Shown here: positions 42,424-48,743 of the stretch, in pieces
Position numbering within the stretch: the first letter of the stretch is position 1
How the letters are laid out: every line of letters starts with the position of its first letter
Source of the DNA: Escherichia phage Turkey5
Sequence record: PQ471516.1
Length of the DNA stretch: 64,000 bases
Reading direction: 5' to 3' (one strand)
Notes under the pieces: model-generated
Databases searched by the model: none
What the model saw: the letters and a program-made list of their open reading frames with translations, nothing else
What the model was told of the DNA's origin: nothing
Translations under genes and position numbers: made by a program

Positions 42424-43119
42424 ATGGTTGAACAATTTATGTTTGGTGGTTATGCAAATGGTGAAGTACGTAACATTTCTATTCCTTATGTTGTAGAAAA
42501 AGTTAACGGTTCAGAACGTACATATGACTTGGCATCTCGTATGATGCAAGACCGTATCCTATTCTTGGATACCGATTTCAACGACCAGATGGCACACATT
42601 ATCAAACAACAATTGGTATGGCTGGATTCACAAGGTGATTCTCCAATCACTATGTATATTTCGTCACCGGGCGGTTCAGTTCACGCTGGATTGGGTATTG
42701 CTGATGTTGCAAAATCCTGTATCTCTCCAATTCGTACTGTTGTTATGGGTTATGCTGCTTCTATGGGTTGCTACACTCAATCAGTACTGGGTTCTAAGGG
42801 TTATCGTTTAGGTGGTAAGCGTTCATTCTTCATGTGTCACCAAGTAAGTTCTGGTACACAGGGTTTGATTACTGACCAGAAGATTTCATTGAAGCATTCT
42901 GACTCTCTGAACACGCTTCTAACGAAAGAAATCGCTGAAGCAGTAGGTGTGTCCCATGAACAACTTCTGAAAGACGCAGACCGCGATTTGTGGCTAAATG
43001 CCGAAGAAGCACTTGAGTACGGCGAACATGGTTTCATTGATGGTATCATCCTTGGGCCACGTGATGAAGCTGGTAAGTACCTTGTTAAGCGTCGTGGTGG
43101 CGTGGAAGAGTGGGTGTAA
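42424..43119 (+). CDS. clpP: ATP-dependent Clp protease proteolytic subunit ClpP
   Basis: ERTYDLASRMMQDRILFL, SSPGGSVHAGLGI, catalytic-Ser context AASMG, His context MCHQ. Confidence 0.8.
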   Translation: MVEQFMFGGYANGEVRNISIPYVVEKVNGSERTYDLASRMMQDRILFLDTDFNDQMAHIIKQQLVWLDSQGDSPITMYISSPGGSVHAGLGIADVAKSCISPIRTVVMGYAASMGCYTQSVLGSKGYRLGGKRSFFMCHQVSSGTQGLITDQKISLKHSDSLNTLLTKEIAEAVGVSHEQLLKDADRDLWLNAEEALEYGEHGFIDGIILGPRDEAGKYLVKRRGGVEEWV

Positions 43120-43129
43120 TTGGTTGAGA

Positions 43130-43170
43130 ATTGTGCCTCGAATTGAGGCACAATATTGATATTTTATTGA
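43130..43170 (+). terminator. Putative terminator (hairpin, weak T-tract)
   Basis: hairpin ATTGTGCCTCGAATTGAGGCACAAT followed by ATTGATATTTT. Confidence 0.5.
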
Positions 43171-43181
43171 GGTAATTTCAA

Positions 43182-43466
43182 ATGACAAAAGTACTCGTTC
43201 GTAATAACAGTACTGAAGAAGTTCAAGTACTCGATGATTCAGAATTCATTGATGTAGCACTAACTCAAATGTCCGAAGCTGCATTGTCAGTTAAAGGATG
43301 CACACAGTCTGAAGAACTGCTTAATGGTTTAGCTGTAGTTCTTGAACTAATGCAAGAAGTACTTGCAAAAAATAACATCAATCCAATTAACGTCGTGACA
43401 CATGCAACCAATCTACGTAATGAGTTTGGTTCATTCAGTGACAAAAAAGCATCCACTAAAGAATAA
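43182..43466 (+). CDS. Hypothetical protein
   Basis: 94 aa. Confidence 0.45.
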   Translation: MTKVLVRNNSTEEVQVLDDSEFIDVALTQMSEAALSVKGCTQSEELLNGLAVVLELMQEVLAKNNINPINVVTHATNLRNEFGSFSDKKASTKE

Positions 43467-43480
43467 GGAATAATAAGACA

Positions 43481-43924
43481 ATGGCTAATGATCAATACAA
43501 AGATGGACTAGAAGCATTCAAAGCAAAAGTGGTTCTAACTAATGAACAACTAAAAATGCAGCATCCACTATTCCGTCAGGGTTATCGTTCTGCACAAGAA
43601 GCAGCTATGAAGAAAAACAATCCAACGTTCCCTACAGCATTGTTTGATATTCCTAAACGTCCTGAAGTGTTTAAGGCCGAATGGACAGACATTATGGCTG
43701 CGACCAAACGACCTCGTTTTGCAAAACTTCATACCGATGAAGGTCGCTGGATGCTCATGGAAATCATGAAAGCAGTAGAAAAACAAGCCGACAAAATCGT
43801 TCGTTATAAAGATGTAGTGAATATGGTAGACAAAGCGTTTAACATTATCCTACAGTACGGTTACGATGAAGGTGTACTGACCGTAACTGATTGCGAACAG
43901 TACGATTTCGTACCAGTACAATAA
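43481..43924 (+). CDS. Hypothetical protein
   Basis: AAGGAATAA RBS region; 147 aa. Confidence 0.5.
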   Translation: MANDQYKDGLEAFKAKVVLTNEQLKMQHPLFRQGYRSAQEAAMKKNNPTFPTALFDIPKRPEVFKAEWTDIMAATKRPRFAKLHTDEGRWMLMEIMKAVEKQADKIVRYKDVVNMVDKAFNIILQYGYDEGVLTVTDCEQYDFVPVQ

Positions 43925-43931
43925 TCTTTTA

Positions 43932-46751: not shown

Positions 46752-46824
46752 TTATAATTACAAGAGGATGATATGTGTTGTACTCCCCTTGTAAAAAACA
46801 TATAAAATACACTGGGATATTAAT

Positions 46825-47085
46825 ATGAGCACATTGCTTGATTGGATTTCAATCCTTTATTATTCAATTTTAGTTTTATACAGTTTCACTATTCTACTTT
46901 CCGTTGGAATGTATAAAGAATTTCGTAATGGTTTTTTGAATGAAAAAACTAATAAGTTTGCTTCTAAATTCGAAGCAGTACTTTATTATTGTTTAGCTTC
47001 TGGATACATTACCTGTTTAGTACTAATGGGCATTCTTATGTATTTTATGGGAACCATTTTACAAGTTCTTCCATTCCTAAATTAA
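46825..47085 (+). CDS. Small integral membrane protein
   Basis: two hydrophobic segments (ILYYSILVLYSFTILLSV; ITCLVLMGILMYFMGTIL). Confidence 0.45.
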   Translation: MSTLLDWISILYYSILVLYSFTILLSVGMYKEFRNGFLNEKTNKFASKFEAVLYYCLASGYITCLVLMGILMYFMGTILQVLPFLN

Positions 47086-47101
47086 GTGAATAAAAAAAGG
47101 G

Positions 47102-47130
47102 AGCTTGTGCTCCCTTTTCTAATTTAAGCT
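47102..47130. terminator. Bidirectional rho-independent terminator
   Basis: A-tract, hairpin GGGAGCTTGTGCTCCC, T-tract; sits between convergent genes. Confidence 0.75.
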
Positions 47131-48032
47131 GCACTTACAACATAAGTACATTCAGCAGTATGTGAACCATCAACTGTAGTTACGATAACACTAGCATTAC
47201 CTTCACCAACTAATATTACAAAACCTGTTTCAGATACGGTTAGTACATCGTCATTAGTACTTGACCATACAACATCTTTGTTAGCTGCATTATCAGGCAG
47301 AACCGTTGCAACTAGTAATTCAGTACCACCAATTGGGCCATTACTTGATGTTTTACTTAAAGTAACACCAGTAACTGGGGTATTGACAACATATGCACAA
47401 GATGCTACTTTAGAGCCATCAACTGTTGTTGCGTTGACTGTTGCAGAACCGTTACCAACTAGAGTTACTAATCCAGAATTAGACACTGTGAGTACTGCGT
47501 CATTAGTACTTGACCATACAACTGATTTATTTGTTGCATTTTCAGGTAATACAGTTGCAACTAGTGTTTCAGAACCACCAATCGGACCATTACTAGAATT
47601 TTTATTCAATGAAATACTTTCGACTGGAACAACAACTGCGACATACTTAGTCGCGTACTTACCAGTTTGTACTTCATTGCCATTAGTAAGAATTACTTTA
47701 TGGGTGAAAAATTTATATGCAAAACCGAGTGCTTCCATAGTTGTTGCATCATATACTTTAACAGCGAATTCATCACGACCAAGTGCACTTGCAATTTCTT
47801 GGGCAGTGGCTGATAAATCAAGTAGGTTACGATTTTTATCTCGACCAACCATTGATACTCTTTGATAAACAGTAGTTGAATCACTATCAACTAAGTCAAA
47901 CATGCGAGTACTACACTCGTTGATAATGTATAGTTCTTTATCAATTTCTTGAGCACTGTGATCAGTTGCTGCAAAAACACAGATACCACCAACGTTGAAT
48001 GGCAATTCACCAAATTTAGCTATAGGCTTCAT
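47124..48032 (-). CDS. Big_2 (bacterial Ig-like group 2) tandem-repeat protein with unknown N-terminal domain
   Basis: two ~80-aa repeats: ...SSNGPIGGSETLVATVLPENATNKSVVWSSTNDAVLTVS...VDGSKVASCAYVV and ...SSNGPIGGTELLVATVLPDNAANKDVVWSSTNDDVLTVS...VDGSHTAECTYVV; only minus-strand gene. Confidence 0.7.
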   Translation of the reverse strand: MKPIAKFGELPFNVGGICVFAATDHSAQEIDKELYIINECSTRMFDLVDSDSTTVYQRVSMVGRDKNRNLLDLSATAQEIASALGRDEFAVKVYDATTMEALGFAYKFFTHKVILTNGNEVQTGKYATKYVAVVVPVESISLNKNSSNGPIGGSETLVATVLPENATNKSVVWSSTNDAVLTVSNSGLVTLVGNGSATVNATTVDGSKVASCAYVVNTPVTGVTLSKTSSNGPIGGTELLVATVLPDNAANKDVVWSSTNDDVLTVSETGFVILVGEGNASVIVTTVDGSHTAECTYVVSAA

Positions 48033-48140
48033 TTGCTTCTCCTATCAATAGAATTATTTTAATTATTTATAAAATTCAGGTTGACAAACATCAACAATCC
48101 TAATACAATAGTACTAAATCCAACCGAATAGGAATAAGAC

Positions 48141-48743
48141 ATGACTTGCATCATCGCTCACGCAACACGTACTTCATCGTTTATTGCTGCTGACAAATTA
48201 GGTAGCAATAACTTTACAAAAGCAATCCAAACGGAACCAAAGATCTTTGAGAAAGAGTTCGATTCTCGTGTATTGGAAGAAGGGTTTATCCCAACAATTC
48301 ACAAAGATACCATGACAATCGGATACACTACATCGTTCCGTATGGGACAGTTGTTGGAACATTGTCTTGTTCTACCAGAGAAGCAACCAACCCAATCGTT
48401 CAAGGAATATCTAGTACAATCAGTAGTTCCAGCTATCCGCACTTTATTCCGTGAAGAATGGGGTTCTCGTGCCGATAATCAAGATGTAGGTGGTGGTCAG
48501 TTCATCATCCTTCATAAGCACAAGATCTATGAAATTCATGAAGACTTCTGTGTACTTGAACCAAAAAACAACATCAGTGCAGTTGGTAGTGGTGCATATC
48601 ATGCAATTGCAGCAATGGCAGCTTATCTAACAGTTGAAACTGAAACTGAAGTTCCATTGGTTGACCGTATTGGTTCGATCTTTGATATCGTCAGCGATCA
48701 TGTTGTTAGCGTGAGTTTTGAGCATGACATTCTAAAATACTAA
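48141..48743 (+). CDS. HslV/proteasome-beta-like Ntn peptidase (putative)
   Basis: N-terminal MTCII (Thr2 as in HslV MTTIV), FIAAD, and glycine-rich block AVGSGAYHAIAAMAA resembling HslV AIGSGG..AQAAARA. Confidence 0.5.
   Translation: MTCIIAHATRTSSFIAADKLGSNNFTKAIQTEPKIFEKEFDSRVLEEGFIPTIHKDTMTIGYTTSFRMGQLLEHCLVLPEKQPTQSFKEYLVQSVVPAIRTLFREEWGSRADNQDVGGGQFIILHKHKIYEIHEDFCVLEPKNNISAVGSGAYHAIAAMAAYLTVETETEVPLVDRIGSIFDIVSDHVVSVSFEHDILKY

Follow-up and report, generated by a model that had tools for sequence, protein, structure and literature searches.

Background

Phage-encoded ClpP and phage-borne homologues of the proteasome have already been discussed in the literature (PMC7824862, PMC6102473, PMC8665760). 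Iyer et al. regard ClpP as the most prominent of the patchily distributed, presumably host-directed peptidases of jumbo phages (PMC7824862), while the report on phage Atu_ph07 describes "ClpA" as conserved in the Rak2-like phages (PMC6102473). Rak2-like and other jumbo phages are known to carry genes for ClpP, ClpA and ClpS (PMC6102473; PMC7824862), and Fuchs et al. (2021) added the phage-borne proteasome homologues PPH, AAH and CPH (PMC8665760). Here, we analyse a part of Escherichia phage Turkey5 (sequence record PQ471516.1), positions 42,424 to 48,743 of a 64,000-nucleotide stretch (the window, to which all coordinates refer unless another genome is named), which encodes three proteins with peptidase folds: a ClpP, a second ClpP-like protein predicted to be exported (protein 2) and an HslV-like protein.

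In bacteria, ClpP carries a Ser-His-Asp triad and a propeptide-like N-terminal extension. Its partner ClpA has two AAA+ rings with a GYVG pore loop and docks to ClpP through an IGL loop, an adaptor of the ClpS fold completes the set, and clpS-clpA and clpP-clpX each form an operon. Elsewhere in MEROPS clan SK, the ClpP/crotonase fold with its handle-like helix recurs in SppA and NfeD, which employ Ser-Lys dyads; SppA acts outside the cytoplasm. HslV, BPH and the PPH-AAH-CPH group are built on the N-terminal-nucleophile (Ntn) αββα fold, with a Thr1 exposed by removal of Met, Asp17, Lys33, a G-S-G loop and a compact group-I architecture.

Results and discussion

Three peptidase genes in a conserved gene block

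Over a 7-kb stretch of this region, the DNA shares 97.9% identity with vB_EcoM_JNE01, an Escherichia phage of 355 kb in the genus Asteriusvirus, and approximately 78% with PBECO4, phAPEC6, 121Q and about 30 more jumbo coliphages. The source phage is an Asteriusvirus jumbo coliphage. An earlier inspection of the letters and open reading frames (ORFs), hereafter the sequence-only reading, had proposed three distinct peptidase-like genes within 6 kb. All three ORFs are where it had placed them (the second probably starts at GTG 46140), Pfam, PHROG and PDB profile matches bear out three distinct peptidase folds, and the mapped catalytic residues are all present: Ser113/His139/Asp188 in ClpP, Ser97/His122 in protein 2 (numbered throughout from the Met at 46152) and T2/D18/K34 in the HslV-like protein. 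The same reading held the combination to be unusual for a phage, which does not agree with the relatives: the trio is syntenic in PBECO4, 121Q and phAPEC6 and annotated there, the PBECO4 RefSeq names of the syntenic genes being "head maturation protease" (gp105), "protease" (gp097) and "peptidase HslV family" (gp096). The JNE01 record annotates ClpP alone of the three. PADLOC returned no match for any of the three peptidases. The roles that the sequence-only reading suggested for them, in remodelling host proteostasis, in degrading defence proteins or in envelope processing, are speculative.

The interpretation that we favour, with moderate confidence, is that the three genes are independent of one another, each transcribed separately and none encoding a virion component; they lie in a conserved early block extending from DNA ligase to PhoH and would encode the core of a phage Clp machine, an exported periplasmic peptidase and an HslV/BPH-like hydrolase. 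It builds on folds, conservation of catalytic residues, synteny, partner genes and promoter-like sites, from which we infer activity, a disulfide, export, timing, the pairing of partners and substrates. Surprise is low, because phage ClpP and phage proteasome homologues are familiar types and the relatives share the trio and have it annotated; the useful outcomes are the correction of a database label, the placement of ClpP in a phage ClpAPS set and the definition of an exported C-x-S-x-C family.

Each gene is preceded by a σ70-like promoter of its own (Table 1). The -10 element ends 31 nucleotides before the ATG of ClpP (34 and 37 nucleotides at the equivalent sites of PBECO4 and Hallingskeid), 29 nucleotides before GTG 46140 of protein 2 (35 in PBECO4 gp097, 31 in the Hallingskeid orthologue) and 31 nucleotides before the ATG of the HslV-like gene. 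The three best promoter-like sites of the stretch, each matching 11 of 12 consensus positions, comprise two 5' of ClpP and one 5' of the HslV-like gene. Across the + strand of the window, 18 sites score at least 11/12, as against 2.3±1.7 in first-order Markov simulations, which is consistent with a large early-gene block transcribed by host RNA polymerase. The promoter-like sites belonging to each gene, together with a terminator-like hairpin 3' of ClpP, argue for independent transcription by host RNA polymerase, and the peptidase genes are presumably expressed early.

A single coordinated proteolysis module would account for the 6-kb clustering. Gene proximity is indeed conserved across Asteriusvirus, and the order of ClpP and protein 2 is kept out to a marine Vibrio phage. 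However, synteny extends over the entire block from ligase to PhoH, and a conserved gene order is therefore no peculiarity of the peptidases. Between the three genes lie at least seven unrelated genes, a terminator and a virion gene on the opposite strand, and each peptidase gene has its own promoter; the HslV-like gene is not at this site in RaK2, Hallingskeid or the Vibrio phage; the likely partners of ClpP are encoded 80-165 kb from clpP in JNE01; and the three proteins have evolved at rates that are far apart (96%, 53% and 64% identity to PBECO4 for ClpP, protein 2 and the HslV-like protein). A coordinated module is thus very improbable, and the clustering is that of a syntenic early block, not of an operon or module. 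More exactly, ClpP, at 95.7% identity to its PBECO4 counterpart, is the most conserved gene of the block, in which the remaining enzymes show 82-92%; the HslV-like protein stands at 64%.

ClpP and its candidate phage partners

Judged by its sequence, the 42424 product is a genuine ClpP (MEROPS S14). Pfam CLP_protease (PF00574) matches at 6.6e-41 (140.6 bits, cut-off 20.2) over profile positions 2-179 of 182, and ClpPs in the PDB match residues 20-209 at 1e-36. Identity to E. coli ClpP, for which the reference in the alignment was identical to the K-12 gene product, is 35-36%, and Ser113/His139/Asp188 align with E. coli Ser97/His122/Asp171, leaving the triad intact. In comparison with mature E. 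coli ClpP, the phage protein is extended by 19 amino acids at the N-terminus and by roughly 20 at the C-terminus.

Databases tell a different story, in which this ClpP is the head-maturation (prohead) protease. RefSeq applies the label "head maturation protease" to the PBECO4, RaK2 and Hallingskeid records, and phrog_94, which bears the same name, matches at 2.6e-44. Nonetheless, the NCBIfam model for head-maturation relatives of Clp (Clp_rel_HeadMat, NF045542) gives 51.8 bits, below its cut-off of 120, whereas true ClpP models give 150 bits. PBECO4 gp520 is a Peptidase_S77 protein of the T4 gp21 type (1e-20), encoded with the major head protein (gp518) on one side and the portal (gp523) on the other, and the genus as a whole possesses a dedicated S77 protease adjoining the capsid, scaffold and portal genes. 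The phAPEC6 counterpart, gp227c, was found in the virion, and gp353c, gp346c and gp345c, which are orthologous to ClpP, protein 2 and the HslV-like protein, respectively, are missing from the list of 62 phAPEC6 virion proteins (PMC7247149). The ClpP gene is situated in the early metabolic block under its own σ70-like promoter, not by portal, scaffold or capsid genes, and co-occurs with phage ClpA and ClpS. T4 gp21 and the other S77 proteases resemble phage ClpP in being phage-encoded serine proteases, but their fold is unrelated, and it is the separate S77 gene beside the capsid genes that encodes the actual head-maturation enzyme. Because the genus has this protease, a prohead role for ClpP is highly unlikely, and the widespread label is almost certainly wrong; correcting it is one useful outcome of the analysis.

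Host ClpX and ClpA had been assumed to be the partners of the phage ClpP. A search of the whole PBECO4 genome instead located a ClpA homologue and a ClpS-domain protein of the phage itself. The former, gp539 (762 amino acids), combines the domains AAA, AAA_lid_9, AAA_2 and ClpB_D2-small and aligns with E. coli ClpA over 732 amino acids at 43% identity (E=0). Both Walker A motifs and the GYVG pore loop of D2 are preserved in it, and its I-G-M aligns with the I-G-L (617-619) of E. coli ClpA. The latter, gp457 (181 amino acids), contains a ClpS domain (24.7 bits, cut-off 23). Both genes are carried by JNE01 (88% and 76% identity) and are found throughout the Rak2-like group. Authentic E. coli ClpX, HslU and Lon detected no homologue of any of them in the PBECO4 genome by tblastn.

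These observations make it our best reading that ClpP belongs to a phage-encoded ClpA-ClpS-ClpP set. It would form the proteolytic core of a Clp machine in which the phage's own ClpA, with two AAA+ rings, GYVG and IGM, and the ClpS-domain adaptor, both encoded far off, serve as partners, and this machine may carry out the ATP-dependent breakdown of selected cytoplasmic proteins, of host or phage, during infection. The set shares with its bacterial counterpart the catalytic triad, the ClpP fold, a propeptide-like N-terminal extension, the two-ringed ClpA with its pore loop and I-G-hydrophobic docking tripeptide, and the ClpS-fold adaptor. It differs in that its three genes are scattered over more than 100 kb in place of the bacterial operons, the docking tripeptide is IGM and not IGL, and some residues of the docking pocket are altered. 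If the placement is right, this group of phages brings with it a complete, tunable ATP-dependent degradation machine.

Alternatively, ClpP may work mainly with host ClpX or ClpA, or in mixed rings with host ClpP, and retarget or poison host proteolysis without recourse to the phage ClpA. In favour of this, its fold and triad are those of ClpP, its identity to the host enzyme is 35%, the host has both ClpX and ClpA, clpP is not adjacent to phage clpA or clpS, and an anti-host role has been proposed by Iyer et al. (PMC7824862). Yet ClpP is accompanied across the Rak2-like group by a phage ClpA of full length, whose IGM loop is of the docking type, and by a ClpS-domain protein, a co-occurrence that is hard to square with partners from the host only, and the residues that we assume to line the docking pocket are unlike those of host ClpP. 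We consider a partnership mainly with host unfoldases rather unlikely.

Several minor observations concern the partners. An N-terminal extension of approximately 70 amino acids and a C-terminal insert mark the phage ClpS-domain protein, for which several databases use the misleading name 'ATP-dependent protease'. Positions that we take to bind the N-degron are changed relative to E. coli ClpS (His66 to Asn, among others), a hint that the substrate rule may be altered. Other candidate unfoldases were rejected. PBECO4 gp010, an ATPase of HslU size (441 amino acids), has only a marginal AAA match (21 bits), no PDB sequence match and no tblastn likeness to HslU or ClpX, while in phAPEC6 the counterpart is associated with the virion; two PBECO4 "AAA family ATPases" are a DnaB-like helicase and a Rad50-like protein.

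A predicted exported ClpP-fold family with a C-x-S-x-C motif

Protein 2 is the sole undescribed member of the trio. Its start is probably GTG 46140, not 46152 or 46089, because an AAGAGGG Shine-Dalgarno sequence lies 7 nucleotides 5' of this codon, the ATG at 46089 falls inside the TTGACT-17-TACAAT promoter-like site, the JNE01 annotation begins at the corresponding GTG, and the resulting N-terminus, MYRFMKEVFQ, matches MARLCKEIIQ of PBECO4 gp097 position for position.

Single-sequence comparisons place the protein only at the edge of known families: Pfam CLP_protease is marginal (22 bits, cut-off 20.2) and a pairwise search of PDB sequences is weak (E 0.035), while phrog_26024, named "protease", matches at 1e-73. 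As a word-indexed homology search gave only two matches, an exhaustive HMMER search and tblastn against phages were used instead; the former recovered 592 relatives at E<=1e-3, just 15 of them at <=1e-10. In an alignment of 91 sequences G70, C95 and C99 never vary, and conservation reaches at least 90% at S67, G69, S97 and H122. The corresponding family profile matches ClpP in the PDB at 6.5e-8 and the NfeD/1510-N protease at 4e-5, and its alignment puts the serine of C-x-S-A-C on the ClpP nucleophile and the G-x-H on the ClpP histidine. The string CNSACS, previously described as a non-canonical nucleophile context, is therefore real but regular for its family: its Ser occupies the ClpP nucleophile position, and C-x-S-[AGS]-C is present in 88 of the 91 homologues. 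The alignment contains no conserved Asp or other third catalytic residue.

The middle protein, earlier suggested to be secreted, is by a rule-based scan probably exported. Its N-terminus runs from a basic n-region through a hydrophobic segment some 14 residues long to P-C-S-A/G (the slash marking the predicted cleavage point), giving an n-h-c architecture with a site that fits the -3/-1 rule. By the same scan, signal peptide or lipobox architecture occurs in nearly all 91 homologues, with lipoboxes in many bacterial members. Protein 2 as a lipoprotein was considered and rejected: N-F-P-C is no lipobox, and Ala occupies that position in the PBECO4 orthologue. In 17 of 19 close orthologues, the motif pair C95/C99 are the only cysteines of the mature protein. 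Nucleophile elbows require small residues at nucleophile-2 and +2; by analogy, C95 and C99 are probably joined by a disulfide, a bond that would fit the periplasm.

Protein 2 would accordingly be exported by Sec and lose its signal peptide after ...CSA, leaving a mature ClpP-fold protein with a Ser97/His122 pair on an elbow bracketed by two invariant cysteines. Most likely, it would be an ATP-independent serine peptidase of the periplasm acting on envelope or periplasmic proteins. With its clan SK relatives it shares the ClpP/crotonase fold, including the handle-like helix, and an S-P-G-G oxyanion region; its Ser and His occupy the catalytic positions of ClpP, and with SppA it shares a predicted site of action outside the cytoplasm. 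It is set apart from ClpP, SppA and NfeD by a predicted cleavable Sec signal peptide (lipoboxes in bacterial homologues) and by the invariant C-x-S-x-C, probably a disulfide, around the nucleophile. It has neither a conserved Asp nor the Lys dyad of SppA and NfeD and, unlike ClpP, which uses an ATPase, it could have no ATPase partner in the periplasm.

The protein might, on the other hand, be no peptidase at all but a binding or scaffold protein or another crotonase-superfamily enzyme, or else a membrane-anchored signal-peptide peptidase like SppA. The third catalytic residue is not conserved, the Pfam match barely clears its cut-off, SppA, NfeD and crotonases are also structural neighbours, and the N-terminal hydrophobic segment could be an uncleaved anchor. 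These points are outweighed, in our judgement, by the conservation of Ser97 and His122, which fall exactly on the Ser and His of ClpP, and by signal peptidase I-compatible sites that are conserved in the orthologues. As to SppA, alignment to which had been suggested as a check, protein 2 does not match the SppA and NfeD (MEROPS S49) models, and its family keeps a His at the ClpP position where those enzymes are Ser-Lys dyads. We consider these alternatives to a periplasmic peptidase unlikely.

Among phages, tblastn finds the family only in 48 records of Rak2-like jumbo phages, which infect Escherichia, Klebsiella, Salmonella, Erwinia, Xanthomonas and Vibrio. The position 3' of the dCMP deaminase is kept out to the marine Vibrio phage, and the protein is fast-evolving, with 52.6% identity to PBECO4 against 82-96% for neighbouring enzymes. 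Bacterial members are chromosomal "hypothetical proteins", for example in Undibacterium and Ferrimonas, and their neighbourhoods show no conserved operon or neighbours. No curated Pfam or NCBIfam model covers the family, and a literature search found nothing on an exported C-x-S-x-C family and no characterised member. The phrog_26024 family is thus an uncharacterised C-x-S-x-C ClpP-fold family with predicted export; it may correspond to COG3904.

A bolder proposal, which we advance tentatively and regard as possible rather than probable, is that this undescribed peptidase family has its elbow clamped by a Cys(-2)/Cys(+2) disulfide and becomes active only once oxidised in the periplasm; that the Rak2-like phages captured it, a family found in diverse bacteria as secreted proteins or lipoproteins, as an early, fast-evolving effector that cleaves host envelope proteins; and that, with ClpAPS and the HslV-like protein, it lets the phage control proteolysis in both compartments. 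If true, protein 2 would be a periplasmic effector, serving for example in superinfection exclusion or in the removal of a receptor or defence sensor. As it offers a testable structural hypothesis, the redox-clamped nucleophile, in a tractable phage context, the exported family is the only lead of the trio worth following.

A predicted HslV/BPH-like hydrolase

A Pfam scan of the HslV-like protein gives no match and a pairwise PDB sequence search is weak (E 0.83), while phrog_1040, 'peptidase HslV family', matches at 1e-21. There are 210 homologues; M1, T2, C3, D18, K34, G149 and G151 are invariant in an alignment of 53 of them, and in the PDB the family profile retrieves HslV (2.4e-8) and BPH (1.6e-3). 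T2, D18 and K34 align with Thr1, Asp17 and Lys33 of E. coli HslV. A structure model (predicted local distance difference test, pLDDT, 94.5) retrieves HslV at 3e-10 and Thiobacillus BPH with a template modelling (TM) score of 0.72 in Foldseek, and as modelled the protein has the Ntn αββα fold.

The protein would act as a Thr1/Asp17/Lys33 hydrolase whose nucleophile is exposed by Met removal alone, probably in HslV/BPH-like rings. As the phage has no HslU, it may borrow that of the host or act unassisted. In fold, in generation of Thr1, in Asp17, Lys33 and the G-S-G loop, and in its compact group-I architecture, it agrees with HslV, BPH and PPH-AAH-CPH, the last of which are phage-borne as well. 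It differs from HslV in being about 25 residues longer and in lacking an adjacent or genome-encoded HslU, and it is too diverged for the Pfam Proteasome and HslV equivalog models. At 200 amino acids, it is also longer than PPH (approximately 140), a length that speaks against its being a PPH.

Might it instead sequester host HslU as a decoy, or be an Ntn hydrolase or ligase without proteolytic activity? The phage is devoid of HslU, the sequence has diverged from HslV to the point of no Pfam match and a score of 19 bits where 137 are needed, and the proteasome superfamily does include a ligase, connectase (PMC8665760). Against this, Thr1, Asp17, Lys33 and the G-x-G loop are invariant in the 53 homologues, which favours catalysis, and the nearest folds, HslV and BPH, are both peptidases. 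A decoy or non-proteolytic enzyme is accordingly improbable, and an HslV/BPH-like hydrolase is preferred. The family is represented in 196 phage records. T5-like Epseptimaviruses are among them, as are phages of Aeromonas, Vibrio and Geobacillus, and many members already bear the names "peptidase HslV family", "proteasome subunit" or "threonine-type endopeptidase". Its presence in 196 phage genomes poses the question of how a proteasome-type protease is activated without HslU.

Weighing the overall reading

Several results count against the interpretation of the trio as three active, separately transcribed peptidases. A literature search found no experiments on any of the three proteins. The total number of promoter-like sites in the 7-kb stretch, 27, is that of shuffled sequence (28.4); weight is carried only by the near-consensus sites, the window-wide enrichment and the conserved positions. 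The ClpP equivalog models of NCBIfam (TIGR00493 and NF001368) score 150-153 bits and their cut-offs of 249-309 are not reached, for which reason we assign the phage ClpP to a diverged clade and not to the housekeeping orthologues. At ClpP positions that we take to line the IGF/IGL pocket, the phage protein differs from that of E. coli (Y60T, F82S, L114G), so docking to any unfoldase is putative; these changes could reflect co-adaptation to the IGM loop, which is a lead only. The HslV equivalogs (NF003964 and TIGR03692) give 18.9 and 18.2 bits, far from their cut-offs of 137 and 158, and HslV itself is nearly inactive without HslU.

Gene neighbourhood and other features of the window

Table 1. 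Features of the peptidase region and its surroundings (window coordinates unless stated)
Feature	Position	Strand	Details
Gene block, in order		+	DNA ligase, metallophosphoesterase, ClpP, dCMP deaminase, protein 2, HslV-like, Sir2, Nudix, PhoH-PIN
Second promoter-like site upstream of ClpP	42275-42303	+	11/12
σ70-like promoter of ClpP	42365..42392	+	TAGACA-16-TATAAT, extended TG, 11/12
ClpP proteolytic subunit	42424..43119	+	231 amino acids
ClpP catalytic codons	42760-42762, 42838-42840, 42985-42987		Ser113, His139, Asp188
Intrinsic-terminator-like hairpin	43130..43154	+	directly 3' of ClpP stop; 11-bp stem, 5 GC pairs, T-rich tail
Hairpin between small ORF and protein 2	45849-45876		perfect 12-bp stem, A-run/T-run flanks
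Twin promoter-like site upstream of protein 2	45999-46027	+	10/12
σ70-like promoter of protein 2	46082..46110	+	TTGACT-17-TACAAT, TG, 10/12; overlaps spurious 46089 ATG
Protein 2, exported ClpP-fold protein (predicted)	46140..46751	+	203 amino acids from GTG 46140
Signal peptide of protein 2 (predicted)	46140-46211		MYRFMKEVFQAVIVMMLINFPCSA, cleavage before G
C-x-S-x-C motif of protein 2	46434-46448
Conserved His codon of protein 2	46515-46517
Lone opposite-strand gene	47124-48032	-	302 amino acids
σ70-like promoter of HslV-like gene	48081..48109	+	TTGACA-17-TACAAT, 11/12
HslV/BPH-like N-terminal-nucleophile threonine peptidase	48141..48743	+	200 amino acids, begins M-T-C
Thr nucleophile codon of HslV-like protein	48144-48146		Asp18, Lys34 = proteasome Asp17, Lys33
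Sir2 and Nudix genes	48963-50278		downstream of HslV-like gene
PIN-PhoH fusion	50950-52389		479 amino acids
Small ORFs with hydrophobic N-termini	45547-45846, 46825-47085, 48772-48966, 50608-50898		64-99 amino acids
T4 Rnl1-type RNA ligase; polynucleotide kinase/phosphatase	29771-30913, 32009-32953
Large ORFs without any Pfam match	60898-63597, 38088-39296, 21004-21951		899, 402 and 315 amino acids
Perfect 12/12 σ70 sites	2478, 24031, 34414, 52407	+
ClpS-domain protein	JNE01 207834-208376		PBECO4 gp457 counterpart

The hairpin upstream of protein 2 reads as an intrinsic terminator on both strands. Between it and protein 2 lie approximately 260 non-coding bp, in which two promoter-like sites stand in tandem. 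The lone opposite-strand gene within the early block encodes a protein whose N-terminal 118 amino acids are 40% identical to PBECO4 gp098 (125 amino acids, 'virion structural protein'); by comparison with gp098, it has gained two C-terminal Big_2 immunoglobulin-like domains. The phAPEC6 counterpart of gp098, gp347, was seen in the virion with 75% coverage. Scattered between the peptidase genes are four small ORFs whose N-termini are strongly hydrophobic; the one at 48772 is without a PBECO4 counterpart.

In RaK2 and Hallingskeid, the slot of the HslV-like gene holds a nicotinamide mononucleotide (NMN) adenylyltransferase ('cytidyltransferase') and a nicotinamide phosphoribosyltransferase (NAMPT), which look like a cluster for the salvage or regeneration of nicotinamide adenine dinucleotide (NAD+); one locus would seem to carry either gene set as alternative cargo. 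Further downstream, the PIN-PhoH fusion has an orthologue in phAPEC6, gp341c, that was present in the virion at 31% coverage, unusual for a PhoH-like ATPase. One of the large ORFs without a Pfam match, that of 402 amino acids, is just 48.5% identical to its PBECO4 counterpart. The RNA ligase and the polynucleotide kinase/phosphatase, encoded near each other, are the classic tRNA-repair pair that counters anticodon nucleases.

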